Positions 1 to 22,964 of a DNA stretch of 25,214 bases are shown here, piece after piece. Source of the stretch: a virus (lineage: Duplodnaviria; Caudoviricetes). The first letter of the stretch is position 1; each line of letters begins with the position of its first letter. The translations under genes were made by a program, and so were the position numbers. The DNA lies in the IMG/VR virus record IMGVR_UViG_3300045974_000134, positions 1 to 25,214 of that record; one strand, written 5' to 3'. A model generated the notes under the pieces. That model was not told where the DNA came from, searched no databases, and worked only from the letters and a program-made list of their open reading frames with translations.

Positions 1-3000
1 TAGCCTCTCAGGTTGCCCCACTCGCTCTTAAGCTTGTCCAGTTCTCCGCGATAGCCAAGGATATCCCGGAAAGCAGAGAGCATGTTTCCCTGGTGTTTCT
101 TCTCAGTCTGGTCAACCTGTTTCCAGAAGTCACGATAGGCGGCAATGACAGCAGGGCTCGCTTTGATCTTGGAGGGGTTCTCGCCGCTGGCAAGTTCATC
201 ATCAGTGAGATTCCGCTTAAGGCTACGAATCAGGCGGTGGACTTCACTTGCTTCTTTCGCATCAAGGTGTGCTGCTCGCTCCATGTTCTTGTTCAGGAGT
301 TCGACCAGATCAGCGAACCACTCTTGATCCTTATATGGAAGCATTGACAGTTCATCAAGTTGTTGGAAGCGTACCCGATTGGCTGCATTCATAACTTCAT
401 GGAATGCCCGATAGGCTTCAACAACAGTTTTCCCGACTTTGCCGAACTTGGTTTTACCGCGATACAGTTCGTCTCGAGTGAAGTATGTGGCAACTCCGTT
501 TTCATCGCCGTGCTTTATCAGGTCGTTAAACTGTTTTATTTCTTCTTTGCTGGCTTTCTTAAGAATATTGTCCAGTCCTTCAACGCCGGCATAGCCCTCT
601 GATGCCTGGAACAGATCAGAGATAATGCCGTTGCGGTTCTGGCTCCGTTCCAGGTTGAGATTAACGACATGGCGGCGTATCGGTTTGCCTTCACTTCCGA
701 ACCACGGATTAGAGAGAATCTTGCCGATGTTGGCTTTCAGGCGTTCAGGAATACTCTGACCGGCCATTTCAATCAGGCTCTTGACCATATCGGTAACTTT
801 GGCCGGGGCGTTGATCTTGGCGGCGTGATCGGCTATACCTTGGTCTTGAAGGGAGAAATTAACGTCGCTGTTGGTGGGGTCAAACATGCCATTATTCCCC
901 GTAGCTGACTTGATCTGGTCATTTGAGAATACGGCATAGTTCTTTTGAGGACGTTCGCCATCCAGTGATTCATACACGATCATACCATCATATCCAGCTT
1001 CTTTAATTGCTTCACGTACATCGATGGTTTCAAGAGCTTTCCATTCGCCATTGGATATTCTGCGGTCAAGATCCAAGCGAGTTGCGGTTGTATATGCATC
1101 TGCTGGCAAACTGGAAATAATATCTTTGACAGCTTTGGAATCAAATGGATCAAATGCTTTTTCTATTCTCAAATATACCGGCATCACAGAGGGATATCCC
1201 TGTTTGAGGTGTTTAGGCACGTATGGATCTGTGATTTCTGCATTTCCAGCAAACTTTGAAGCAAATTCGGGAGAAGAGGAAAAGAAGATGGGGCCTTCAA
1301 AAATCCCTTTTCTGAAAGTACCAAAATCATTCCGCGTGCCATGATAAACCACAAGCGGGTTGCCTTGTTTGTCAACAACCGTGCTATCGCCAAACCACTT
1401 CTTGAAATTTGGGGTGTCAGTCTGGCCACTTGCTGCAAACATTGCCTCATCCCCGCCCTTGCCAACTGACAACCGTTTTTCACCAATCCGCAACATCTCT
1501 GCCACGGCCAGCGACAATTCGCTATCTGAAACATGCGAGATAAGCCCCTGTTGACGCAACCAGTGCTTGATGTACATGAATAGACGCTGCATCAAACCTG
1601 ACGGTTTCCAGTCTGCATTCACTGCCTGTTCAGCTATGGCGGCGGTTGCTTCCTGTACGGCACGGCGGTATTGCTTTTCGTCGGTTAGGTCGTATCCATA
1701 TCGGTCAGCAATCCGTTGCAGCATCAGGTGTGCTTCTTTGGCGGCTTCTGTTTTGCCATTCACGGTACGCTTGAACCAGTCAACAGCCAGGTCAACGATC
1801 TTGCTCGTCTGTCCGGCGTGCGCCAGTTCGTGACCAATGACCAGCGCCTTGACGCGCTGCAGATCCGGGACGTTATCAGTTATGACGTGAATGGTGCCGT
1901 GCAGTTCCATTGCCTGAACATGATCGGGGTTTACCTGGGCCTTGGTGATTTCCGCCTGAGCGTTCTCGGGAAGATCGGAAATGGATTGAACGACGTTGAC
2001 ACGCTTGGCGATGGGGAGAGTGGATACCCAGGCTTGGGCTTCGGTGGCTTGCATACCGGTTGATTGAGTATCGGTAAGCTTGAAGTTGGCTTCGGTATTC
2101 GTTCCGACTGGCTGTTTTTCATCCGCCGTCAACTCCGCCTGCAACTGCGACAACTCGGCAATCTTCTCATTGAACGCCGCTTCATGCTCAAACGGTGCAC
2201 CGATTCTTTTCACCAACTGTTTCAGTTTGGTTTCATCATCAGCAAGATTCGATTCTGTTCTACGAAGCGAATCAGATACATCGTTCAAGCGGTTGAAGAT
2301 CCTCCGGGCCAAACCAGCACCATCAGTCCCTTGCGGATACATCATCATGTTGGTGTCAATTTCTGACGGAACATTATCAGTTATCTGGATAATATTGGAA
2401 TACTGCATTGTCACCGCCGACATGGCAACGGACGCAACCATCGGCATACCGTTGATACTGCCGTACTGCTGTGAATCAGTCCAGACACCTTTGTAACTAT
2501 CATCAGGGAATTGGTTTTGCAGATCCATCACCGCCTGATTATATGCAGCAACCACCGCTTCACCGAATTTTCCCGGCTTGTCAAACGTCCGCTTACCGAC
2601 AATGCCCTTGAAGCTACTGCCGGAAACATAGCCGCCAACAGCCTTTACCGCTTCTTTCAACTTAGCAATATGCTTATTGTACGCAGAAATATTCCATTCC
2701 GCCGTGTTCTTGTCACCCCTCATCTGGCTCTGTTGCTGAAAGTGTGCTTCTTTCAAGCGGGAAAAGCGTTCAATATCAGCCTGCAATCCAACCAGCTTGA
2801 TAACCCGTTCATCACCAGACGACAATGCCCGTGCCATTTCATACTGGCTGACTTCTGAAACATCTTCCATTGTGCGCAGATTATCGTCACCCATAAAGGC
2901 TTGCTCGATAAAGCGACCTTTACGGCCTACCATCTGCCACATGGTTGAATCGTAACTGCCCTTTGTGGAATACCAATTAGCTTCAATCTCGGTATTCTGG

Positions 3001-6000
3001 TTCCCTTGACGGATGATGCGCCCGTGCGCTTGTTCAACAGCAGACGGGTACCACGGTGGGTCAATATAATGCAGAGCATAGAGGCGGGTTTGCAGATTCT
3101 TACCGACACCCAGACTATTGGCATGGCCGATAATGATCTTCTTGCGCCCTTCGCGCATATCCTTCATGACTGACAACTGCTTGGCACTGGTGTCATATTC
3201 ATCAAACCACGCCACTTCACCAGCAGGAATACCGGCAGCTTTCAAGCGCTGATTGATCCAAGCCCGAGCATCAAAACCACGGCTCTTGGCGACGTTGGCA
3301 CCGAAACCATGATTATAAAAGACAACCTGTGTGCCTCCCTTTATCGGGGAGGGTTTACCGTCAACGCCATTGTATTTATTATCCTTCGTGTCTTTATACA
3401 CCCGGATAATTTCATCAATCACGCGGTTCAGCTTGCTATCAGGATCGTTCTTGGTCGAACCGACCAGGCGCATATCAATAGACGATAAGCGGCCATCGGT
3501 AATAATATTGATAATCGGGTCAGGGTTTCCTGGCTGGTCCGGTGTCGGCTTCCAGTCCCGTGCCCGCTTCATACGTGGTTGCAGCACATTTGCCTGATAC
3601 GCTTTCAATTCATCAGACGGCGTAGCGATAATCATATTCGGCTTGCCGCCCTTGATATCAGGACGAACCACATATGCCCCCAGGTGGCTGGAAGTCAGCA
3701 CATCCATAAAGGTACGCACCCGCTTCATCAACTCCGGCAGGTTATTGAATTTGGCAAAGCGTGATACCGGCTCGTACTTGCCAGCGGCATTCAGTTCATA
3801 ATCCATAGCCGTCTGACCAAACATCGCCGCCCATGCGTCAAAATGGCCGATATCGTCCCGCTCCATCTCTTCTTCCATAAAGAAGCGCATGACGTTGTAC
3901 AACTCGCCCATTGTATTTGTCACAGGTGTACCGGACGCAAAGACATGACTGCGGCCTGGCTTTTGATGCTCCATCCAGTTTGTTTTCAGAAACAGGTCAA
4001 GAGCGATACGACTACCAACAGGGTCAATTCCCTTGACCTGCTGCGCCGTGGTAAAATCCAGCTTACGGAACTTGTGCGCCTCATCGACAAAAAGGAAGTC
4101 AACGCCAAGCTCTTCATAGGTAATAATATTATCGCCCTTGCCATCTTCGACAATACTGTCAAAGCGCTGTTCGGCATTTTCAATCATCTTCTCCATCTTG
4201 GATATTAGGTGACGCGGTGCATCATCATCCCGTGCTTCCGTCAATGCTTCACGCATGGCGTTCAACATCTTCTCTTTCACTGGAGCAACACTTTCCGGCT
4301 TCATGCGCAACTTACCAAGTGCTGATTGCGTAATGATAATAGCATCAGGGGCATTCATCGCCGCCTGAGCCATAAAGCGTTTACGGTTTTTCAGATCAAA
4401 GTTCAGTTCATCGGCCACCATAATGTTTGCCAGCGGGTACGCATCCATGAATTCAGCGGACCATTGCGATAGCTGGTCATTCGGCACCACGTAGAGAGGC
4501 TTGTTGATCAGCCCCAGGCGCTTCATCTCCATACCGGCTGCAATCATCTCCAGTGTTTTGCCCGCACCAACAGCATGCGCCAGATAGGCATTTCCGGTCT
4601 GGATCATGCGCCAGATCGCCCGCTTCTGGTGAGGATGTAGCTTGTACTTGGTAGCGATGCCGGGAAGTGTCAGGTGACTGCCATCAAAACGACGGGGAGC
4701 CAGATTGTTGTACTTCTTATTGTAGAGATCCAGCATCTCGCCAGCACGTTCAGCATCAGTCCAGATCCACGAACGGAACTCCGTCCGCATCTTGTCGGCA
4801 ATCTCATTTACTCGGGCAGTTGCGGCTGGATCTACAGATACTTTGCCATCAAGGTCACGAACAGTAATGCGCAGAGGACGCTGATTCAGCACAGCATCAA
4901 GGATCTCGTTGGCACCACGGTCAGCCGTACCCCATTCAGCGGTTGAGCTACGCAACGACTGCACACCCTGCTTTTTACTGGAAGAACGCCGGCCATATCC
5001 TTTGGCCGGGGCATTGCCCATTGTCACCTTCCAGGTGTTTGTTGCCGCATGGCGCTCTACCTTTATATTCAGGTTCAGCACTTCCTGGGCGAACTCCCCG
5101 ACAATATCAGTCGGTATCCACGCCATACCAAGGCCAGCGGTAATCTGTCCCGGTGTAAGCGGTTTTGGCTGTACTTCGGTTAATGCCTTGACGTTTGCGC
5201 GAAACTTCTCATCACTCCGTGCCGCCTGTTCAGCTTCTGCCAGTTTAGTAACAACATCACCAGACAGATATTCATCCGCCAGCAGATGTTCACCGGATGG
5301 CGTTTCATAGATCATATCGCCCAAGGCTTCAATCGCTTCATTGCGAGAAATCTTCATCAATCCGGCAATATGATCCAGGTCAAGCATCCCGATTTCATCA
5401 AGCGACAACGCAAGTGCATCACCCATGCTCTCCGGATTGGTGGAACGCACCGGCTTCATGACGGTACGACCGGTTAGGAAGGAGGCTTTTGAAATATCGC
5501 CATCGTCGTTGATCTGCTCAAGCGCGAGAACAAGCGAACCCTCAACGTCGATGTTTGCTGTTTTTTCCCACTTATAATTGCGCGACTCTACTTTCTGTTC
5601 ATTGCCATCTTCATCAAGCTCTGTTTTGACTTTCAGCGTAAAGTCTTTGATGTTGCCGTACTTCTTCACAAAAGCGTCATACGCCTTATTCAGTTCCTTC
5701 AACGACTTTTCCCACCCTGCATCGTTGAACTGGTCAAAACGTGCCTGTTTCATTAGGTCGCGCAACGGAATATAATCGGTCAACCAGACTTGCTCTTTTG
5801 CTGATAGCTTCACCATGCTGGAGAGCGGCACACCGGAACCGTTTTCTACCCGCATTATTTCACCCTTGCTAGACAGGTACACGCCCCCCTCTTTCTTATT
5901 CTTGGGGCTAAAATCACGCTCTACGACAACCTGCTTGATCGTTTTCGGATCTTGTCGCATGGCACTGTAGACGTTGGCAGGCAGGTTTTGCACAGCAGCG

Positions 6001-9000
6001 GCAAAGAGCTGTTCAATATCGCCTTCCAGTGGTTTAACAGAATAATCATTCTGGCTGAATTGGCCTCGCTCGGTAACATGAGTACCCAACACCATTTCAG
6101 GATGAGCGGCAAAATACTCGTTGATCTGTTTAGTCTGGTCGCCTATCTGAATATCTGCGGTTTTGCCCCAGGCATGGCCACCGGCCTCATCACCATCGGC
6201 ACGCTTGCGCAAAAAGATAACATCAGTAACAACTTCCGTACCGCTATGCTGTTTGAAAGCGGTTTGGGGTAGACGGATTGCACCCAGTAGGTCGGCACGT
6301 TCAGAAAGATATGCCCGTGCCTTGTCGTCCAGCTTATCCATAGTATAGCGACTGGTAACGAACGCCAGTAGGCCACCGGGACGCACCTTGTCAATGGTCT
6401 TGGCAAAGAAGAAGTCATGCAGTGAAAACTTGTTTTTCTTGTAATCAGGGTCAGTTAGGATTGTTGTGGATGAAAACGGCGGATTGCCGATTGCCACGTC
6501 AAAGAAATTGCCGGGGAACTTCTGCTTGGTGTAGTCACCGTGGATAATATTCTGATTCGGATAGAGCTGTTGTGCTATGGTAGCAGTAATGCCATCCATT
6601 TCAATACCGGTATACTTGGAATTGGCGTAGATACCATCAGGCATGGTGCCCATAAAGTTACCGGTACCGGGGCCAGGTTCAAACACCTTGCCACCAGCAA
6701 AGCCCATACGCTCAAAAGCTTTCCACATGGAGCGGGTAATAGCTTCACTGGTGTAGTGGGCATATTGACTGGAGCGTGCGGCGGTCTTTAATTCTTCGGG
6801 AGTAAGCGCAGTATCAAGGCGGTCAACCAGCGGTTTCCATGCTGCTTCTGCCCATTGTGGGATTATACGTCCTTGTTCGGCATAACCGGGGAATATCTTG
6901 TTGCGGATTTCGCCAGCACCCCAGCCAACATACTTCATCAACAGAAGCTGCTCGTCTGGTGTGGCCATGCGCTTTTCTTCGCGGAGAGCTTTAATCAGTT
7001 CAACAATATCAAGGTTACGGCTGGCGCTATCCTTCCAGCTTCCGGTACGCTCTAAGCCGCCATTTGGGATTCGTAAATCTCCGGTGGCATCGGATCGGAG
7101 AATTCCAGATAATCCGCTCGGGTCACTTCCCAGATCTCGCGTTGTGCTTGTTCCATCTCCTGCACTTGCTGCATCGAATCGTGGATCTTGCTGATCTTCG
7201 TTAATGCTTGATGATACACTGACCGATACGACTCCTCCATCTCCACTGCGTACTCTTCCAGGAACGTCTGCAATGTCCCCGCTTGTTTCAATTCCTTGTA
7301 CATCTGAGGTGCCTGTTCCTTCATCGACAATGCTATCATCTGTTCCAGTTTTTTGCCGCTCGGAATTAACATCTGACACCTCCTCGTTTTCTTCTATTAT
7401 AGCATAATTATTGTTTTTTACATCATCCATAAAGCGCATCAGGTACGGTTTAATTGCATTTCCAAACTGTTTGGCGATGAACTGAAAGAACTCGGTTAAC
7501 TGTTTGCCGGATTCTTTGAAGTTATTATACGCCGCCACAAAATGAGGCTTGGCTTTGGCATAGGTATGTTCGTCCACAGCACCGGGGAAGTTCTTTAGCG
7601 AGCCACCACCAAAGCTGTCATAGAGCCCTTTCAATGCTTCACCGGCACCCTTGACGCCATAATCAGCGGCGGCTTTCAGAATATCGCTTGCGCCTCGGGT
7701 GTCGTTCTGTCCTCCGCCAAAAACAGGACCGGAGCCAATGTGTTCAATAGTTGCGATTTCCGTTTTTATGCCGTCTACAAGATCGGCTATCTTTGTTTTT
7801 TCGGTTGCCGTGAAGTAATGCCACAGGCGATATTTGATGCCGAGCTTACTCAGAATCTGTTTTTGACCAAGCAGGGTATACGCCGACCACCAGTCTGGCG
7901 CTTGATCGGACAGAGCAATGTCGCTATCTTCCTCAACAACACTCTTCCCGGCCAGTGCCGTATTCAATTTATCCAGAAAATCAAACGGTGGCGAAAACTT
8001 ATTGCCTGGTGCCGTGGCACCGACACTACGGTGATACCAATCACCATCTACTTTGGAATATATGTACGGATTGCTATCAACCTGAACTTCGTTATCCGCC
8101 AGCTCTACCTTTACAGGAGCTACCGCCTCGCCCTGCAAACCTTCAACAAACTTCCGCCGTGCAGGAGTATCAGTCACATACCAAACACGTTTACGCATTG
8201 CCCATCGGAAACCTTCCGCCTTGATCTTGCTGATAACAGCATCAGACGGTTTACCCTCAAAGCGCAATTCAATACCATTCTGTGCACTGTTGAATGAAAC
8301 CTTCATCCCGGCAACCGGCTCTATCTTTGGCTTGGCCGCTTCAACCTTCTGCCGGTACTTATCCGCCTCATCTGGGTACTTTTCTGCCCACACATCAAAC
8401 GCCGCCTGCTGTTCATCAGCAGTCTTGTCAAAAGCAGTTGCCGACTTTTCGTGACTGGCAATATTCTCTTTCTTCTTGGCACGTTCAGCTGCATTGCGTG
8501 AACTCTGTGCCTGTTTGCGGGAATACGCTACATTTCGCAGTAGCGTATCTGGTTCTACGGCTACTTTATTATAAACCGGAGCAGGAACGACAGCCGGAGC
8601 TGGATCTGTTTCATGATTCGTGTAATCAAACGAGACATATCCGGATACACCATCATCCCACATAGCTTCATAAATGTGCGAGTAACGAGTAGATGACTCA
8701 GACGAAAGGCCACCATAAGAAATCATGCGGCTGGTAAATGTTTCAGCCCGAGTTATTTCTCCATGCTTACCATCGTTATCCTGAACACGATCCCCTTCTT
8801 TAAAGTATGGTGTCGCCTGGTCGTCTCTTTCCGGTTTTGCAGGATGGGACCCAACAGGCGGTGGAGTGCTTTTCCGCTCGTCCTGCTTCGCCTTATGCTT
8901 TTGTAACGCTTTCTGAATGCGGGGTTTGTTCTCCGGCTTGGCCTTGGCTATAACCTGCTTCAAATACGCTTCGTGCTTCTTGGCTTTTGACAGCGAACGT

Positions 9001-12000
9001 ACCGGTTTTTCAGCAGCCGTTACATCGTCAAACATCGCCGCCATTTCCTCAAGCGACAGGCTATTAATTTCATCTTCAATGGTCTTAGCTGCAGCAGGCA
9101 CTTCATCAGTCACACCGGTGCGCTCTTTCATCTTGGCAATTCGGTCTTGTAATGCTTTCCGTACTTTCGGTTCTTTTGCGGCAAGCATCTCCGCTTTCAG
9201 TTTTGCAAGATGCTTTTGGCGAGCAACGCCAAGACGCCTTACCCTTGCTGTCTCTGCCGGATCTTCGCTTGCAGTATTATCTTTACTGACTGCATGAACG
9301 CCTGTTTTTGTTCCGGGGTCATTCCCTTGCACTTGTCCTTGATCTTCTGTGCGGCCTTCTTCGCTTCTGAACTCTGTGGCATCAAGAGCCTCCCTGAAAT
9401 TATTTTCAACTCCCTGCCAATCGGCAGCGGTCATTGGCGGTTCAAAGGTTTCAGCTAAGTAGTCATCTATAATATCTGCGGATTCAGCCAATAATACCGA
9501 CTGTTCTTCAACCCACTGATTGTGATGGAACTCGTCATACTCTTCATCGGTCATTGCATCCAGCATTGCCTGAAAACGGGACTCCTGATCTTTTTGGAGA
9601 GATGTGTAATTGCTTTCGCCGCGTGTATCGTTTGATGAAGCGAATACATGAGAGCCTCGCGAAGAGTCGTCCAGGGGAATACCTTTGGTGCTGATTACGT
9701 GCAGTATCCCGGCCTTGGCTTCTTTGGTTGCCTGACTGTTTAATGTATGCGCAAGATCCTTGCCGGATGTTGTTTCCTTATCAATTTGGGCTCGGCTGAT
9801 CCCGCCCAATTTTGCGGCTGCCACTATCAAACTGTCTTTGGATGTATCCAGTTGACGGCGGGTGTTGGCTGGTTTGGTTGCGGCAGAGGTTTTGACAACA
9901 ACATCTTTCAGGCTGTTTTCATGCTTCTGGATCTCTGTATTGATTTCACCTAATCGCCGGGTGACTTCTGCTGGATACACTAAACCGCCAGTAATCCCCT
10001 TGTTGTTATTGTTGGCAAGCAGTTGCTCTTTTTCCTGCTTCAACGCGGTAACGCGGTCCGCTACAGTGGATTTCCGCAGGTCGGACACTTCTTTTTGCGG
10101 CCCATTGACTTTTTGCTGCACATTGGACAAACCATCACTTACACCTCCGGATTGGATATTATTACTTCCGACTCCTGCCACTTGGCTTTGCAGGTTGGAC
10201 ACTGCCAATCCCGGCCCGTCCATTTTACTCGGCCCTGCTCCTTGCATTTTGGGCAATACACCTGTAGTGCCATTGGCATTCTCCTGATATGGTTGAATTT
10301 TTACTATTACTTTACCGGATGCAGCTGGAACGCTTTCCATGGTACCGTCCATCTTCTTCCGGGTGATAATATATGGCTCTGCAATTGCCGACAATCCTGC
10401 CGAGGTAGCGTTTTGCAATAAAGAGTCTGCTACCTGTTGCGGCATGGGAGGTGAAAGATATTCACCATTCTGAATTGCACCGACTCCACCTGTTGTAAAA
10501 TGATCGGCGTTACGGATCTTTGGGAAACCGAGAGATGTTAAAAATGTATTGGTATCACCGCTTGATAGGGCAGAGAGTGACGGGTGCTGTTGTTCTCCTG
10601 GCGCATTAGCAAATGGATTGGCGGCAAACGATGAATACATGTTTGCCGTTACGTTTGTTGATACGGGGGGCAGATCAGGTAATATTGATTTGACGGCGCG
10701 GGTCATTGCCCCTGCCGGTGGAGTTGCAGCTATACCAAGATCACGTCCCGAATCCACGGGCCAGTTTTTGGGTATAGAATCGGCGGCAACACCTGATGTA
10801 TCTTGCAGTATGTTACCAGTGCGTGTATTTGCTCCTGTGACAATTTCGGTAGCGGGTTGGTTTTGCTGATTGAGGGCATTGGTTTCCTCCGTTGGCGTTT
10901 GTGGCTGTTGTCCTCGCTGCTGCATTACATCGGATATGTGACCAGCAGCAGAAGAACCGCCGCCCATGACGCCACCGATCAGGCCACCAGCTGCCATTGA
11001 TTCAATAATATCATTCCATGCTTCCGGGTGAACGGCAGCACTGATACCTTTATCTGCGGCAACCTTAAGGAAGGCGCTGAAATTTCCGCCAGCCTTGTTG
11101 ACTTCATCAGAATACACCTGCTTATTGGCTCCAATGTTTTCCAGAACCGTCTGCACGCCCTCCTGTATCGTCTCTTCACCAATACCCAGACCGGCAATCT
11201 TGGCCGTATCCTTGACGCGCTGCACACCAGTCAAAGCGGTTTTACCGGTAAGCGCCTCAGCCTCTCCTGAAACCTTACCCATTCCCGGCATGATCTTGGT
11301 CAAGCCGGTTTTCTTCATCAAATAAGCAGGGAACGCGGTATCAAGGATGCCCGCTGCGGTGCCATAAAGCAGTGACCGCCCCATATCCTTTTCTTCCGGT
11401 TTCTGATCGCGGTAGATCGTAGCCGTTTCCATGCCTATTGAGTTGGCACCGGTTGCGGCGATTGCACCAGTGGTACCGGCACGATTGGCGGCCAGTGTTG
11501 CAACGTTTTCAGCGGTGAGCGTTCTTCCTGAATTGATTGCGGTTTTAGTCGCAGCCTCCATCGCTTTTTTCCCGGCAATGGTTTCTAGTGATGCAATACC
11601 GCCACGGGCAAGGCCACCGGCAGCAACACGTCCAGCAGCGGCACCAACTCCACCGGTTGCAATCCCAATGACGGCTTGTGGTAAAAACTCTACCAATTGT
11701 TCACCGGCCCATCGACCTGCATCACCTACACTTTTGATATCTCGGAATTTCTGGGAAGGGTCTTCCTGCTCTTTCTGCGCAATCCAGGATTCGGCAGTAT
11801 CCCCCCATAATTTACCCGCATCTTCAATAGCCTTGACCCCTGTAGCGCGGCCAGCCATTTCCGTAATGCCGGCAACAGGCAGGGCAAGATATTTATTAGA
11901 ACCTACAGCAAAGTGAGTTGCAATATCCTCTACAATACCGCGCTTTGGAGGCGGCTCCGGTGCGGCCTTGCGGTTCATGATACTGTCAAGCTCGTTATAG

Positions 12001-12044
12001 AATGTATCAGAACTGCCGGGACGTGCTAAAAGCTGGTCACTCAT
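1..12044 (-). CDS. Giant DarB-like / large polyvalent protein (>=4014 aa, runs off the left edge); probably virion-packaged and ejected
   Basis: ATG at 12044 after GAGGGA; begins MSDQLLARPGSSDTFYNELD. The same frame (codon starts at position mod 3 = 2) carries NPPF (6485), DEAH (4085), HELAH (1832) and YHGT (1346), and reaches ...DKLKSEWGNLRG at the window edge. The ORF track lists no long closed ORF in this frame, consistent with no internal stop. The N-terminal part has Gly/Ala-rich hydrophobic segments typical of ejection proteins. Confidence 0.93.
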   Translation of the reverse strand, partial: MSDQLLARPGSSDTFYNELDSIMNRKAAPEPPPKRGIVEDIATHFAVGSNKYLALPVAGITEMAGRATGVKAIEDAGKLWGDTAESWIAQKEQEDPSQKFRDIKSVGDAGRWAGEQLVEFLPQAVIGIATGGVGAAAGRVAAGGLARGGIASLETIAGKKAMEAATKTAINSGRTLTAENVATLAANRAGTTGAIAATGANSIGMETATIYRDQKPEEKDMGRSLLYGTAAGILDTAFPAYLMKKTGLTKIMPGMGKVSGEAEALTGKTALTGVQRVKDTAKIAGLGIGEETIQEGVQTVLENIGANKQVYSDEVNKAGGNFSAFLKVAADKGISAAVHPEAWNDIIESMAAGGLIGGVMGGGSSAAGHISDVMQQRGQQPQTPTEETNALNQQNQPATEIVTGANTRTGNILQDTSGVAADSIPKNWPVDSGRDLGIAATPPAGAMTRAVKSILPDLPPVSTNVTANMYSSFAANPFANAPGEQQHPSLSALSSGDTNTFLTSLGFPKIRNADHFTTGGVGAIQNGEYLSPPMPQQVADSLLQNATSAGLSAIAEPYIITRKKMDGTMESVPAASGKVIVKIQPYQENANGTTGVLPKMQGAGPSKMDGPGLAVSNLQSQVAGVGSNNIQSGGVSDGLSNVQQKVNGPQKEVSDLRKSTVADRVTALKQEKEQLLANNNNKGITGGLVYPAEVTRRLGEINTEIQKHENSLKDVVVKTSAATKPANTRRQLDTSKDSLIVAAAKLGGISRAQIDKETTSGKDLAHTLNSQATKEAKAGILHVISTKGIPLDDSSRGSHVFASSNDTRGESNYTSLQKDQESRFQAMLDAMTDEEYDEFHHNQWVEEQSVLLAESADIIDDYLAETFEPPMTAADWQGVENNFREALDATEFRSEEGRTEDQGQVQGNDPGTKTGVHAVSKDNTASEDPAETARVRRLGVARQKHLAKLKAEMLAAKEPKVRKALQDRIAKMKERTGVTDEVPAAAKTIEDEINSLSLEEMAAMFDDVTAAEKPVRSLSKAKKHEAYLKQVIAKAKPENKPRIQKALQKHKAKQDERKSTPPPVGSHPAKPERDDQATPYFKEGDRVQDNDGKHGEITRAETFTSRMISYGGLSSESSTRYSHIYEAMWDDGVSGYVSFDYTNHETDPAPAVVPAPVYNKVAVEPDTLLRNVAYSRKQAQSSRNAAERAKKKENIASHEKSATAFDKTADEQQAAFDVWAEKYPDEADKYRQKVEAAKPKIEPVAGMKVSFNSAQNGIELRFEGKPSDAVISKIKAEGFRWAMRKRVWYVTDTPARRKFVEGLQGEAVAPVKVELADNEVQVDSNPYIYSKVDGDWYHRSVGATAPGNKFSPPFDFLDKLNTALAGKSVVEEDSDIALSDQAPDWWSAYTLLGQKQILSKLGIKYRLWHYFTATEKTKIADLVDGIKTEIATIEHIGSGPVFGGGQNDTRGASDILKAAADYGVKGAGEALKGLYDSFGGGSLKNFPGAVDEHTYAKAKPHFVAAYNNFKESGKQLTEFFQFIAKQFGNAIKPYLMRFMDDVKNNNYAIIEENEEVSDVNSERQKTGTDDSIVDEGTGTSDVQGIETSGDIADVPGRVRSGDGGVVSVSVSSSINEDQQDPRFDAASAGDGTSTTRDLGSDPSGLSGILRSDATGDLRIPNGGLERTGSWKDSASRNLDIVELIKALREEKRMATPDEQLLLMKYVGWGAGEIRNKIFPGYAEQGRIIPQWAEAAWKPLVDRLDTALTPEELKTAARSSQYAHYTSEAITRSMWKAFERMGFAGGKVFEPGPGTGNFMGTMPDGIYANSKYTGIEMDGITATIAQQLYPNQNIIHGDYTKQKFPGNFFDVAIGNPPFSSTTILTDPDYKKNKFSLHDFFFAKTIDKVRPGGLLAFVTSRYTMDKLDDKARAYLSERADLLGAIRLPQTAFKQHSGTEVVTDVIFLRKRADGDEAGGHAWGKTADIQIGDQTKQINEYFAAHPEMVLGTHVTERGQFSQNDYSVKPLEGDIEQLFAAAVQNLPANVYSAMRQDPKTIKQVVVERDFSPKNKKEGGVYLSSKGEIMRVENGSGVPLSSMVKLSAKEQVWLTDYIPLRDLMKQARFDQFNDAGWEKSLKELNKAYDAFVKKYGNIKDFTLKVKTELDEDGNEQKVESRNYKWEKTANIDVEGSLVLALEQINDDGDISKASFLTGRTVMKPVRSTNPESMGDALALSLDEIGMLDLDHIAGLMKISRNEAIEALGDMIYETPSGEHLLADEYLSGDVVTKLAEAEQAARSDEKFRANVKALTEVQPKPLTPGQITAGLGMAWIPTDIVGEFAQEVLNLNIKVERHAATNTWKVTMGNAPAKGYGRRSSSKKQGVQSLRSSTAEWGTADRGANEILDAVLNQRPLRITVRDLDGKVSVDPAATARVNEIADKMRTEFRSWIWTDAERAGEMLDLYNKKYNNLAPRRFDGSHLTLPGIATKYKLHPHQKRAIWRMIQTGNAYLAHAVGAGKTLEMIAAGMEMKRLGLINKPLYVVPNDQLSQWSAEFMDAYPLANIMVADELNFDLKNRKRFMAQAAMNAPDAIIITQSALGKLRMKPESVAPVKEKMLNAMREALTEARDDDAPRHLISKMEKMIENAEQRFDSIVEDGKGDNIITYEELGVDFLFVDEAHKFRKLDFTTAQQVKGIDPVGSRIALDLFLKTNWMEHQKPGRSHVFASGTPVTNTMGELYNVMRFFMEEEMERDDIGHFDAWAAMFGQTAMDYELNAAGKYEPVSRFAKFNNLPELMKRVRTFMDVLTSSHLGAYVVRPDIKGGKPNMIIATPSDELKAYQANVLQPRMKRARDWKPTPDQPGNPDPIINIITDGRLSSIDMRLVGSTKNDPDSKLNRVIDEIIRVYKDTKDNKYNGVDGKPSPIKGGTQVVFYNHGFGANVAKSRGFDARAWINQRLKAAGIPAGEVAWFDEYDTSAKQLSVMKDMREGRKKIIIGHANSLGVGKNLQTRLYALHYIDPPWYPSAVEQAHGRIIRQGNQNTEIEANWYSTKGSYDSTMWQMVGRKGRFIEQAFMGDDNLRTMEDVSEVSQYEMARALSSGDERVIKLVGLQADIERFSRLKEAHFQQQSQMRGDKNTAEWNISAYNKHIAKLKEAVKAVGGYVSGSSFKGIVGKRTFDKPGKFGEAVVAAYNQAVMDLQNQFPDDSYKGVWTDSQQYGSINGMPMVASVAMSAVTMQYSNIIQITDNVPSEIDTNMMMYPQGTDGAGLARRIFNRLNDVSDSLRRTESNLADDETKLKQLVKRIGAPFEHEAAFNEKIAELSQLQAELTADEKQPVGTNTEANFKLTDTQSTGMQATEAQAWVSTLPIAKRVNVVQSISDLPENAQAEITKAQVNPDHVQAMELHGTIHVITDNVPDLQRVKALVIGHELAHAGQTSKIVDLAVDWFKRTVNGKTEAAKEAHLMLQRIADRYGYDLTDEKQYRRAVQEATAAIAEQAVNADWKPSGLMQRLFMYIKHWLRQQGLISHVSDSELSLAVAEMLRIGEKRLSVGKGGDEAMFAASGQTDTPNFKKWFGDSTVVDKQGNPLVVYHGTRNDFGTFRKGIFEGPIFFSSSPEFASKFAGNAEITDPYVPKHLKQGYPSVMPVYLRIEKAFDPFDSKAVKDIISSLPADAYTTATRLDLDRRISNGEWKALETIDVREAIKEAGYDGMIVYESLDGERPQKNYAVFSNDQIKSATGNNGMFDPTNSDVNFSLQDQGIADHAAKINAPAKVTDMVKSLIEMAGQSIPERLKANIGKILSNPWFGSEGKPIRRHVVNLNLERSQNRNGIISDLFQASEGYAGVEGLDNILKKASKEEIKQFNDLIKHGDENGVATYFTRDELYRGKTKFGKVGKTVVEAYRAFHEVMNAANRVRFQQLDELSMLPYKDQEWFADLVELLNKNMERAAHLDAKEASEVHRLIRSLKRNLTDDELASGENPSKIKASPAVIAAYRDFWKQVDQTEKKHQGNMLSAFRDILGYRGELDKLKSEWGNLRG
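870..1420 (-). other. Domain of the giant ORF: ADP-ribosyltransferase-like (ART-PolyVal type)
   Basis: TPNFKKWFGDSTVVDKQGNPLVVYHGT (YHGT 1335-1346)...IFFSSSPEFASKFA...VMPVYLRIEKAFD...AIKEAGYDGMI (GYDG 984-995)...NYAVFSNDQIKSATGNNGMFDP, the motif series of polyvalent-protein ARTs. Boundaries approximate. Confidence 0.8.
1500..2000 (-). other. Domain of the giant ORF: zincin-like metallopeptidase (MPTase-PolyVal type)
   Basis: GTIHVITDNVPDLQRVKALVIGHELAHAG with HExxH at 1818-1832, followed by VQEATAAIAE (candidate third ligand Glu). Boundaries approximate. Confidence 0.75.
2880..4650 (-). other. Domain of the giant ORF: SF2 (SNF2-like) helicase/ATPase of DarB type
   Basis: Walker A LAHAVGAGKT (~4554-4583), motif Ia VVPNDQLSQW, Walker B FLFVDEAH (DEAH 4074-4085), motif III ASGTPVTN, motif VI EQAHGRIIRQGN (~3000-3035). 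Confidence 0.92.
6200..7040 (-). other. Domain of the giant ORF: amino (N6-adenine) DNA methyltransferase of DarB type
   Basis: AHYTS, SAM-binding motif I VFEPGPGTGNF (6654-6686), catalytic motif IV FDVAIGNPPF (NPPF 6474-6485), then HDFFFAKTIDKVRPGGLLAFVTSRYTMDK and GAIRLPQTAF. Confidence 0.93.
7052..7372 (-). CDS. Nested +1-frame gene, 106 aa, helical, TnpV-like
   Basis: SD GAGGAGGTG (7377-7385) just upstream of the ATG, with TGcTATAAT further upstream. The sequence MKEQAPQMYKELKQAGTLQTFLEE...QQVQEMEQAQREIWE resembles the TnpV family pattern as recalled (not searched). The host frame here is a G/D/S-rich linker. Confidence 0.75.
   Translation of the reverse strand: MLIPSGKKLEQMIALSMKEQAPQMYKELKQAGTLQTFLEEYAVEMEESYRSVYHQALTKISKIHDSMQQVQEMEQAQREIWEVTRADYLEFSDPMPPEIYESQMAA
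7396..7404 (-). promoter_or_regulatory. Intragenic extended -10 promoter (TGcTATAAT) for the nested 106-aa gene
   Basis: Minus strand reads aaaaaacaataattaTGcTATAATagaagaaaacGAGGAGGTGtcagATG: a perfect TGnTATAAT in a local AT-rich island; -35 is poor. Confidence 0.7.
9239..9382 (-). CDS. Nested +1-frame gene, 47 aa basic helical peptide
   Basis: GGGAGG-ctcttg-ATG; MPQSSEAKKAAQKIKDKCKGMTPEQKQAFMQSVKIILQAKIRQRQQG*. Lies in a linker of the giant ORF and is too short to appear in the ORF track. Confidence 0.55.
   Translation of the reverse strand: MPQSSEAKKAAQKIKDKCKGMTPEQKQAFMQSVKIILQAKIRQRQQG
10061..10135 (-). CDS. Nested +1-frame zinc-ribbon microprotein, 24 aa
   Basis: GGAGGT-N7-ATG; MVCPMCSKKSMGRKKKCPTCGNPL* (CPxC-x10-CPxC). 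Starts 3 nt after the stop of the 44-aa zinc-ribbon ORF. Confidence 0.6.
   Translation of the reverse strand: MVCPMCSKKSMGRKKKCPTCGNPL
10139..10273 (-). CDS. Nested +1-frame zinc-ribbon microprotein, 44 aa
   Basis: AGGAG-N7-ATG; MALQVYCPKCKEQGRVKWTGRDWQCPTCKAKWQESEVIISNPEV* (CPKC-x14-CPTC with WxC and a downstream W, typical of zinc ribbons). Confidence 0.68.
   Translation of the reverse strand: MALQVYCPKCKEQGRVKWTGRDWQCPTCKAKWQESEVIISNPEV
10730..10879 (-). CDS. Nested +1-frame gene, 49 aa hypothetical
   Basis: GGAGG-aaacca-ATG; MPSISKTNPLPKLSQEQIHALVTYCKIHQVLPPILYPKTGPWIRDVILV*. Begins where the hydrophobic N-terminal region of the giant protein gives way to linker. Confidence 0.5.
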   Translation of the reverse strand: MPSISKTNPLPKLSQEQIHALVTYCKIHQVLPPILYPKTGPWIRDVILV

Positions 12045-21748: not shown

Positions 21749-21832
21749 GGCAGGGTTGCGGCGTTAACCGCTGATGCAACCGGGAAAGCATCACCCTGCC
21801 ACAGGTAAAGGGCGAGCCCTAAGCCCGCCCCT
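21749..21832 (-). other. Structured intergenic RNA after the capsid gene: hairpin plus three-way junction
   Basis: Hairpin AGGGGCGGGC/GCTCGCCCTT (21808-21832), then outer stem GGCAGGGT/ACCCTGCC enclosing GATGC/GCATC and GCGG/CCGC (21749-21800). Confidence 0.55.
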
Positions 21833-21845
21833 CCGGTTTATCCGC

Positions 21846-22964
21846 TTAGAACGGGTCCATGTAGTGATCGACTGCGACCAGCCCGAAGTCCTCTGTACTC
21901 TTATCCAGGTTGCTGTAGAACTTGGGCTTGAGCAGGCCGAAGATTTTGCTTGTGTAGATACCCTGCTGGCTATCGTACTCAAAACCTTTCTCTACCCACT
22001 TGGGAGCGCCAAGATCGGAGAAGCCGAGAGCCTGAGCACCCATAAGCAGAGTACGGCTGCCGTTAATCGCATTGCCTGCGCCCCATCTGGTTGCAGTACC
22101 ATTGGTATTGTATACCAGCGAGTGCTCCTGAATAATCAGGCCGTCAATCGTAACGATACCACCAGTAAAGAATGGGTTCTCATCACCACGCACGCCGCCA
22201 TTAATGACTGCGTTCTTGTAGTCAGCGTCATTCTTAATCATAGCAAGGGTATTGGCGGTAACAAACACCACGTAATACTCTTTCCCGCCTGCAAGCAAAG
22301 GCTTGACCATGTGGCTCTTTGCATAGGCTTTGAGCATGGTCAGCATCTTGTATGATGGTTTGTCGGTTACCGTGATTACAGAAGTATCACCGGCCTCAAG
22401 CATTCCGGTTGTGCCGTTCCAGCGTCTCCATCGTTTAGCGGAAGGAGCGGACACATACGAAGCAAAGTTCAGCTTGGTAAGAGTATCCTTGGTCCGCAAT
22501 GAACCATCGAGGTTGTAGGCATAGGAAATGCCGGACGCGGTGAGGAATGCCAGCTGGTCTGCACGAGAAGCAAGCCAGGTAGAAAGCTTGTCTTTTGCTT
22601 CGCCACGGAAATTAACGACGGTGTTCTGATCGGCCAGTTCGCCCTCGTTGCGGACTGAGTGGTAGATCTCGTCAATCATGATCTCCTGCTGGTATGCCTT
22701 CATTTGCTCTTCGGTGCCTTCTCGCTTGCCACCGACAGAACCAACTCCGCCATCTTCAATGAGGTCGGCAACCAGTGTCATAATGCACTTAAGGCCCCCG
22801 CCTACGGTTTTCTTGAGATCAGTGATTAATTGAATAGGGAAGTTGTCGCCTTTACCGGCGAACTTGGAAAGAATATAGGACTTCTCGCGCATCTGCGAGA
22901 GTACATCGCGGGACCAGATTTTAATCTGATCAGAGCTGAGTGCTCCAAAATTGGTAACTGCCAT
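21846..22964 (-). CDS. Major capsid protein, N4-gp56/DUF4043 type (372 aa)
   Basis: Start revised to ATG 22964 (AGGAGG SD); MAVTNFGALSSDQIKIWSRD...REGTEEQM...NPFFTGGIVTIDGLIIQEH...LLMGAQALG...GLLKPKF...EDFGLVAVD. Confidence 0.9.
   Translation of the reverse strand: MAVTNFGALSSDQIKIWSRDVLSQMREKSYILSKFAGKGDNFPIQLITDLKKTVGGGLKCIMTLVADLIEDGGVGSVGGKREGTEEQMKAYQQEIMIDEIYHSVRNEGELADQNTVVNFRGEAKDKLSTWLASRADQLAFLTASGISYAYNLDGSLRTKDTLTKLNFASYVSAPSAKRWRRWNGTTGMLEAGDTSVITVTDKPSYKMLTMLKAYAKSHMVKPLLAGGKEYYVVFVTANTLAMIKNDADYKNAVINGGVRGDENPFFTGGIVTIDGLIIQEHSLVYNTNGTATRWGAGNAINGSRTLLMGAQALGFSDLGAPKWVEKGFEYDSQQGIYTSKIFGLLKPKFYSNLDKSTEDFGLVAVDHYMDPF

Follow-up and report, generated by a model that had tools for sequence, protein, structure and literature searches.

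Candidate small genes nested in the linkers of a DarB-like polyvalent phage gene

Five nested ORFs in a giant phage gene

We analyzed a 25,214-nucleotide (nt) stretch of DNA from a virus of the class Caudoviricetes (IMG/VR record IMGVR_UViG_3300045974_000134, positions 1 to 25,214; the whole stretch is hereafter called the window). Its minus strand carries a phage head/tail module (scaffold, capsid, SU10 adaptor and head closure genes), which is closed by a giant gene for a DarB-like polyvalent protein (positions 3–12044, minus strand; at least 4014 amino acids (aa), the 3' end being open at the contig end). This host gene contains five short open reading frames (ORFs), designated here ORFs A to E, which an earlier, sequence-only reading had taken for a hidden second layer of genes led by Shine-Dalgarno (SD) sequences. 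All five were indeed found at the coordinates given there, on the minus strand and in +1 relative to the host gene, starting with ATG and ending with a stop codon; each lies wholly within the intact host ORF, in a different frame of the same strand, as embedded genes do.

The DarB-like antirestriction assignment of the host protein is based on PHROG 10089 (E=0), which spans aa 1660–3309. This region includes an N6-adenine methyltransferase domain with an NPPF motif (6165–7067, minus strand; aa 1660–1960) and an SNF2/SF2 helicase (3003–4649, minus strand; aa 2466–3014; Pfam ResIII, SNF2-rel_dom and Helicase_C), and is followed by an ART-PolyVal ADP-ribosyltransferase domain (882–1373, minus strand; aa 3558–3721; Pfam PF18760, E=6e-23). 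Thus, the gene has the hallmarks of a DarB-like polyvalent gene, i.e., a methyltransferase and SNF2 helicase core that is fused with further conflict domains and located in a phage late region. The methyltransferase is 57% identical to those of the Bcep22/JC1 DarB-like proteins. The nearest relative in the genome collection, L088, is a Geobacteraceae metagenome-assembled genome contig whose methyltransferase is 97% identical to that of the window, which suggests Geobacteraceae as the host group of this phage.

ORF A (10730–10879; 49 aa) could be assigned to no family; its SD (GGAGG, 10890–10886) is located 6 nt before the ATG. ORF B (10139–10273; 44 aa) shows a zinc-ribbon-like pattern (CxxC..W..WxCxxC) and has its SD (AGGAG, 10285–10281) 7 nt before the ATG, and ORF C (10061–10135; 24 aa) is a basic, putative mini zinc finger with a double CxxC, preceded at 6 nt by GGAGGTG (10148–10142). 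The SD of ORF C overlaps the end of ORF B, and the stop codon of ORF B is located between this SD and the ATG of ORF C, so the two are likely a translationally coupled pair. ORF D (9239–9382; 47 aa), which is basic (net charge +8) and likely a helical hairpin, comes after a conserved acidic host domain and has its SD (GGGAGG, 9394–9389) 6 nt before the ATG. ORF E (7052–7372; 106 aa) is acidic (net charge −8) and TnpV-like, has its SD (AGGAGGTG, 7384–7377) at a distance of 4 nt and ends at the start of the methyltransferase. A strong SD precedes every one of the five ATG codons by 4–7 nt. The location of the ORFs in linkers of the host frame, as described earlier, was also confirmed: over the five ORFs, F, W, Y and C account for 1.1% of host residues, compared with 6.7% elsewhere in the N-terminal portion and 8.4% in the core. 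None of the five (0/5) is in the catalytic core, where weak-SD +1 ATG ORFs do exist.

Start signals and selection in the +1 frame

The number of nested ORFs was compared with chance using a strict rule (GGAGG, AGGAG or GAGGT within 14 nt; at least 20 aa), which was chosen after the finding was known. Over the giant gene, exactly the five ORFs passed this rule in the +1 frame and none passed in the +2 frame. Such ORFs are in excess over shuffled controls, the comparison that the sequence-only reading had proposed: global synonymous-codon shuffles gave a mean of 0.93 (0/1000 reached five), and local synonymous shuffles of the host gene a mean of 0.86 (1/1000 reached five). When ORF E was left out, the remaining four strict ORFs compared with 0.40 in shuffles (0/2000 reached four). 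No strict SD-ATG ORF was found in the other minus-strand ORFs of the window (12,342 nt). The five ORFs thus have their own translation start signals beyond chance.

Two close relatives of the window, L002 and L088, which were retrieved through ORF E or the methyltransferase, retain all five ORFs with SD, start and length, and in this sense the homologues do keep the frames open. L002 retains them despite a different N-terminus, and both relatives differ from the window between ORFs A and B. The first 380 aa of the giant protein (12044–10900 in the window) resemble those of L088 and not those of L002, and neither relative matches the window from A to B; host modules are, as judged from this three-way comparison, exchanged at the borders of nested genes.

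Substitutions between the window and L002 over the five ORFs were distributed as 46/31/16 among host codon positions 1/2/3, host position 1 being the wobble position of the +1 frame, whereas host-only regions were dominated by position 3 (5/1/39 in the methyltransferase and 9/5/131 in the helicase). Two longer +1 ORFs without a strict SD served as negative controls and were likewise dominated by position 3; both were rejected as genes, i.e., ORF 6418–6143, the longest core ORF tested, with host-type substitutions (2/1/17), and ORF 1534–1184 with the same host-type pattern. The ratio of nonsynonymous to synonymous changes (pN/pS), obtained by simple counts on three genomes (window, L002 and L088), was 0.20–0.39 in the +1 frame versus 1.3–2.7 in the host frame, and the frame-specific difference was significant for four of the ORFs: B (0.20 vs 1.88, P=6e-6), C (0.30 vs 1.58, P=0.014), D (0.30 vs 2.3, P=0.003; 32 aligned codons, with a one-codon indel accounted for) and E (0.20 vs 1.34, P=4e-4), though not for A (0.39 vs 2.65, P=0.14). 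Taken at the level of these counts, amino acid-level selection is shown to act on the +1 frame, whereas in the host frame only the absence of stops and of aromatic residues is maintained.

ORF E represents a TnpV-like family nested before the methyltransferase

A scan with a methyltransferase alignment detected 115 loci, the best 80 of which were taken (62 after collapse at 90% identity). A profile built from five E sequences matched 73 of the 80 loci (four are the profile's own contigs; weakest match E=0.04); all matches are in the +1 frame, within an open host frame and ahead of the methyltransferase, and the other frames gave none. Among the seven loci missed by the profile, five carry a divergent E subfamily recognized by eye, and two have a long unmatched +1 ORF at this place. 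With the divergent subfamily included, 78 of these best 80 of 115 related loci have ORF E nested ahead of the methyltransferase. Across 58 members of the family, the mean BLOSUM score was 0.77 in the +1 frame versus 0.12 in the host frame.

ORF E itself matched Pfam TnpV (PF14198) with 20.3 bits (E=5.7e-4), which does not reach the gathering cut-off of 27 bits. At the family level, homology to TnpV is seen in 25 of 58 members, which match PF14198 at E≤0.05 (best 4e-8), and the top three Atlas clusters for E are TnpV clusters (TnpV in 19–41% of members; 0.90, 209/256 features shared). By these matches ORF E is TnpV-like and not a member of TnpV. The model of E has four helices (predicted local distance difference test, pLDDT, 87.8), and the earlier suggestion that the nested peptides are more folded than the host frame is supported for this ORF, the one whose fold was modeled. 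A Foldseek search of the model against PDB and BFVD yielded nothing at E≤0.001, and tblastn of an E homolog against plasmids gave no match. In a screen of 401 genomes, the only long-frame TnpV match (in G274) was rejected as a false positive, corresponding to a histidine-kinase coiled coil; weak profile matches can thus be spurious.

A predicted internal promoter, the extended −10 box TGcTATAAT (7396–7404, minus strand), lies within the host gene 29 nt before ORF E and is retained in L002, L088 and L097. A TATAAT box with at least 5/6 matches was found 15–60 nt upstream of E in 25 of 53 loci versus 3.3±1.5 expected (maximum of 9 in 1000 host-codon resamplings); these 53 were drawn from the 62 loci, nine with uncertain starts or no match being omitted. 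A generic promoter scan requiring a −35 element did not flag the box of ORF E, and no convincing promoter was seen for ORFs A–D. Phage Bcep22 carries a nested E homolog (E=1e-23) with the same box, and this homolog is unannotated. The distance from the stop codon of E to the start of the methyltransferase ranges from about −66 to +48 nt in 51 of 53 loci; in the remaining 2/53 the ORF, which has a low-complexity variable tail, is positioned 0.5–1 kb upstream. In three loci (L056:5420, L057:5429 and L007:5222), a second nested +1 ORF of 56–84 aa occurs immediately upstream of the TnpV-like gene, and the stop of this ORF directly adjoins the TnpV-like ATG in two of them, L056 and L057, forming a nested two-gene unit.

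Association of ORF E with the methyltransferase-helicase core

Comparison with L097 (G060:C41) revealed a junction. This locus is 80% identical to window positions 7704–7362, through the upstream domain, −10 box, SD and ATG; past the ATG (junction at about oriented position 1145), its core is only 41% identical to that of the window and a different, 81-aa nested protein is present. Read from this alignment, the junction is a site of recombination at which nested gene and core switch together. Over 57 loci, similarity of E correlated with that of the methyltransferase (rho 0.31, Mantel p=0.001, partial 0.29) and of the post-methyltransferase region (0.39) and did not track the upstream domain (partial 0.05).

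A complex predicted for E and host aa 1660–2450 scored 0.75, compared with 0.00 for the best of three controls; individual runs gave 0.75, 0.76 and 0.00, with an agreement of at least 0% of contacts and a partner pLDDT of at least 65. The mark applied to this score is reached by 116 of 157 solved pairs and by 2 of 215 mismatched pairs. The predicted binding segment (5463–5585, minus strand; host aa about 2154–2194, corresponding to residues 495–535 of the host chain in the complex) is situated between the methyltransferase and the helicase and is contacted by E residues 50–77, and the interface falls outside the catalytic motifs. The prediction supports binding of E to the post-methyltransferase segment. 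Hence, the suggestion that the nested ORFs encode accessory partners of the cargo enzymes gained support for ORF E alone, from its co-segregation with the core and from the predicted complex.

Six plasmid DarB-like genes, chosen from 40 listed, were also examined. The E profile matched none of them (0/6); however, a nested +1 ORF of another family precedes the methyltransferase in L115 (about 960–1500; C. jejuni plasmid), L117 (4651–4956; P. aeruginosa plasmid) and L118 (near 4750–4950).

Relatives of ORFs A, B, C and D in other giant genes

A DNA pattern for ORF C detected 14 viral loci. In 8 of them, which include the L002 contig and one phage represented twice, the match is nested in +1 within a host frame of at least 900 codons; the other 6 are not nested and diverge past the first CxxC. 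The pattern for ORF B detected four loci, all of them nested (4/4) and two of them new. Nested B homologs occur in L103, L104, L124 and L125, the four Cys being invariant in 7/7 sequences, and 8 of 9 C homologs keep their four Cys. The ORFs also recur together: a GTG-start B is located immediately before C in L103, L104 has B, C and D in the order of the window, L124 and L125 have B and D, and L110 has C and a weak D. Pfam matches of B and C to zinc ribbons and zinc fingers were all below cut-off. The homologs of D (L104, L124, L125 and, weakly, L110) are not circular because these loci were selected by the B or C patterns. In six giants (window, L002, L088, L104, L124 and L125), D comes after the same unnamed, acidic-ending host domain. 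Identity was higher in the +1 than in the host frame, in part owing to how the sample was chosen: 65 vs 46% for B, 62 vs 44% for C and 41 vs 29% for D.

No distant relative of ORF A was found in one viral scan, the only relatives found being the close ones in L002 and L088. Searches of PHROGs gave no match for A, C, D and E and weak, unnamed matches for B; the Atlas gave no usable match for D, and a protein search with the B alignment yielded three candidates, none at E≤0.01. A free-standing member of any of the five families was found neither among the 126 sequences compared nor in one protein search for B.

Openness of the host frame and origin of the nested ORFs

No host-frame stop occurs over the nested ORFs in any of the sequences compared (E, 58/58; B, 7/7; C, 9/9; D, 7/7), and random recoding leaves the host frame open over E only 0.2% of the time. 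Third-position T in E-family codons that would give a host aromatic residue or Cys is avoided (52/443 vs 253/713 elsewhere, counted on sequences that are not independent), whereas the same comparison in the cores gave 29% vs 28%. We also considered that the host-equivalent frame of an ordinary gene might be inherently disordered and stop-poor. The opposite was seen, with 7.6% stops and 15.9% aromatic residues or Cys, so the linker character is selected. In the +1 arrangement, a host stop arises only if a codon of the small gene has T at its third position, and a silent change can always abolish it. The other shift was closed in 5000/5000 recodings of D and of E. These two properties would account for the nested ORFs always being in the +1 frame. 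For the host gene as a whole, the +1 frame has half the stops of the +2 frame (168 vs 326).

One origin offered by the sequence-only reading was the absorption of small transcription units. It fits the unconstrained host frame over the ORFs (pN/pS 1.3–2.7) and the annotation of TnpV in transposons; however, no free-standing copy of the five families was found in the loci examined, which fits an origin in place. The term "overprinted" presumes that the host frame is older, and here the host sequence over the ORFs is unconstrained and free-standing homologs were not found.

Nested ORFs across DarB-like giants

In the 62 loci, 71 strict +1 ORFs were found upstream of the methyltransferase versus 35.0±4.8 in shuffles, whereas the core showed no excess (11 vs 15.9). 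The upstream excess is mostly due to ORF E. In 58 other giants, with the TnpV-like gene left out of the count, there were 36 strict ORFs of at least 20 aa (four from the close relative L006) versus 24.2±4.4, and 29 of at least 35 aa versus 14.8±3.4; in both cases 0/200 shuffles reached the observed number. By these counts, a second layer beyond E is real and, on average, modest, and five ORFs in one gene are at the high end. The view that the linkers hold a second layer of real small genes is backed by the shuffle control, by frame-specific selection and by conservation.

Proposed roles and alternative explanations

In the reading that we favor, the host gene is dual-coding and its linker +1 ORFs yield separate small proteins that are partners of the neighboring modules. 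It rests mainly on ORF E, and we give it a probability of about 0.6. Whether each ORF is a translated gene can be judged separately: E almost certainly is, B very probably, C and D quite probably, and for A the balance tips only slightly toward translation. The giant protein would be made late, packaged and injected, in analogy to the virion association of its JC1 homolog, and the nested genes would be translated from their internal SDs, B and C as a coupled pair. E may be made from its own host-sigma70 promoter, in which case its expression would not depend on late transcription and would occur just after entry or in the lysogen. E would then bind the methylase-helicase core, whether injected or newly made, and either restrain or chaperone it; a restraining, inhibitor-like partner is favored. 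ORFs B, C and D would move as cassettes beside particular host modules and, by analogy, probably do a similar job as metal-binding or basic helical adaptors. Such a layout would most likely have arisen from module-plus-small-gene units that were fused into the giant and read through.

Several observations weigh against this dual-coding reading. ORF A is individually non-significant and known from three close genomes only, and the pN/pS test as a whole is a simple count on three genomes. One C homolog (L109/L111) has lost a Cys, and the higher +1 identity of B and C is partly circular, since their relatives were found with +1-peptide patterns. By the same rule that detected it elsewhere, the −10 box is absent in 28 of 53 loci. 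The correlation between E and the core may partly reflect better conservation of the core than of the upstream segment. With regard to the predicted complex, one of the three runs scored 0, half of the core was offered to E, and the predicted interface is the least conserved part of E. Finally, no nested gene precedes the methyltransferase in the plasmid DarB-like genes L116 and L119, and a free-standing gene that is unrelated is present in L114. The partner is thus not obligatory.

It is also possible, if rather unlikely, that the nested genes are real but independent passengers, i.e., early or lysogenic effectors or regulators (zinc fingers, DNA-binding or anti-defense proteins) that exploit unconstrained linkers as spare coding room in a genome limited by packaging and are unrelated to the domains of the giant. 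The occurrence of C behind different host segments, with or without B, the resemblance of B and C to generic zinc ribbons, the predicted promoter of E itself and the recurrence of further unrelated nested ORF families in other giants would all fit such passengers, and for A, B and C this explanation is quite plausible. For E it has to contend with a fixed position before the core in 78/80 loci, with the joint swap of E and core and with the predicted binding, and for D with the constant location after one host domain in the window, L002, L088, L104, L124 and L125.

A much less probable explanation is that only E is a gene and that A–D are by-products of hydrophilic linkers, in which few xTA/xTG codons leave the +1 frame open and G/E-rich codons mimic SDs. 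The halved number of +1 stops (168 vs 326), the 24 ORFs given by shuffles in 58 loci (about two thirds of the rule-passing non-TnpV ORFs may be due to chance) and the non-significance of ORF A are in line with it. However, B, C and D each have a significant +1 synonymous excess, in diverged giants their Cys/Trp motifs, SD, start and length are retained, homologs of D were met in loci chosen for other ORFs, and the window count without E is 4 versus 0.40; for these three ORFs the by-product explanation is already largely refuted, and it may hold for A. Similarly improbable is that the +1 ORFs are frameshift or reinitiation arms that give isoforms of the giant, such as a short E-methylase-helicase from the internal promoter. 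Although E stops at about −66 to +48 nt from the start of the methyltransferase in 51/53 loci and the internal promoter would transcribe the core, the tail of E is variable and of low complexity, E is 0.5–1 kb upstream in 2/53 loci, and every ORF has its own SD and stop. In addition, no in-frame TnpV fusion was detected among 401 genomes, longer proteins not having been searched in the protein database.

Comparison with known systems

The host gene resembles the polyvalent proteins with a DarB-type core (Iyer et al. 2017, PMC5512222; PMC9144972) in being a giant of the virion module with methyltransferase, SNF2 helicase and ART-PolyVal domains. In the accessible part of PMC9144972, the JC1 DarB-like protein is reported in virions and its gene makes up 22% of the JC1 phage genome. 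Among DarB-like genes, that of Bcep22 carries the nested E homolog, unannotated, in the layout of the window. The main text of PMC5512222 contains none of the terms "overlap", "TnpV" and "linker", its supplements being outside this check. No literature on nested genes in DarB-like or polyvalent genes was found, with most subscription papers, including the original Bcep22 paper, not being searchable.

The likeness of E to TnpV of Tn4451/Tn4453-type transposons consists of the PF14198 matches of the E family. TnpV is an annotated transposon gene of its own, whereas E is nested in a phage virion-module gene, with no mobilizable-transposon or serine-recombinase setting. The sections available of PMC3158075 and PMC9815147 treat TnpV solely as an annotated gene of transposons whose role is postulated; the role proposed is excision, by likeness to lambda Xis (PMC3158075, as available). 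Nothing in the present data supports an excision role for the TnpV-like E.

Small genes wholly inside a same-strand gene in a shifted frame are represented by Rz1 within Rz, an embedded class in which both products are subunits of one spanin (PMC9144972, accessible part), and by E. coli GndA, nested in gnd (PMC11230408, accessible part). These are single nested genes, whereas the window has five in one host gene, which are confined to linkers and belong to several unrelated families. The window ORFs also differ from Rz1 and GndA in that the families are shuffled as cassettes, one of them with its own predicted promoter.

A broader and tentative proposal is that giant injected phage and plasmid proteins are two-layer cassettes, in which each enzyme module has a cognate +1 controller, located in the neighboring linker and equipped with a promoter and an SD of its own, and the two are swapped together. 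If so, a large stock of specific inhibitors or chaperones would lie unannotated in polyvalent linkers, and TnpV would serve as a regulator of DarB-type methylase-helicases and not a transposition protein; the unexplained TnpV family would thereby gain a testable role as methylase-helicase partner. Phages and conjugative elements commonly carry polyvalent and DarB-like genes, which can fill up to a fifth of a phage genome, and their linkers have been read as featureless. If these linkers encode several selected microproteins, annotations of cultured phages, Bcep22 among them, miss genes, and deletions of giant genes also remove hidden ones. The window would further provide a natural case of several genes sharing DNA, in which the linker yields its sequence and keeps its openness and disorder.

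Gene annotation and additional observations

The claim that standard gene callers would miss all such ORFs is mostly accurate, as none is annotated in Bcep22, yet nested ORFs are sometimes called. Examples are P0001 on a 1327-base contig and, for another family, the RefSeq annotation in L117. In the latter case, the nested ORF is annotated and the giant is given a start downstream of it, which shortens the giant, although no stop interrupts the host frame from 4509 on.

Other giants contain nested SD-led +1 peptides (36–67 aa) of four additional recurring families, none of which is present in the window. One occurs in L057, L063, L065, L067, L068, L072 and L079 (about 3580–4510), another in L032, L033, L035, L042, L043 and L049 (about 2690–4240), and two are pairs (L022:659 with L025:2543, and L022:5183 with L053:5216). 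L002 also has an SD-led 58-aa +1 ORF late in the giant (L002:13564), with a TGATAAT box about 80 nt upstream, which is absent from the window version. In L107, two SD-led nested +1 ORFs of 52 and 53 aa (1141–1296 and 943–1101, minus strand) precede the next domain of another giant; the segment before them is presumably GGDEF-like.

Elsewhere in the window, antisense ORFs of 160–193 aa are present on the plus strand across the capsid and giant genes (21774–22355, 11431–11916 and 7740–8297). Upstream of the scaffold and capsid genes, a TTGACA-containing promoter-like stretch is followed by a 61-aa ORF (MANSTVQH...) on the minus strand (24835–24600), and the contig end above it has what we take to be a transposase-like remnant.

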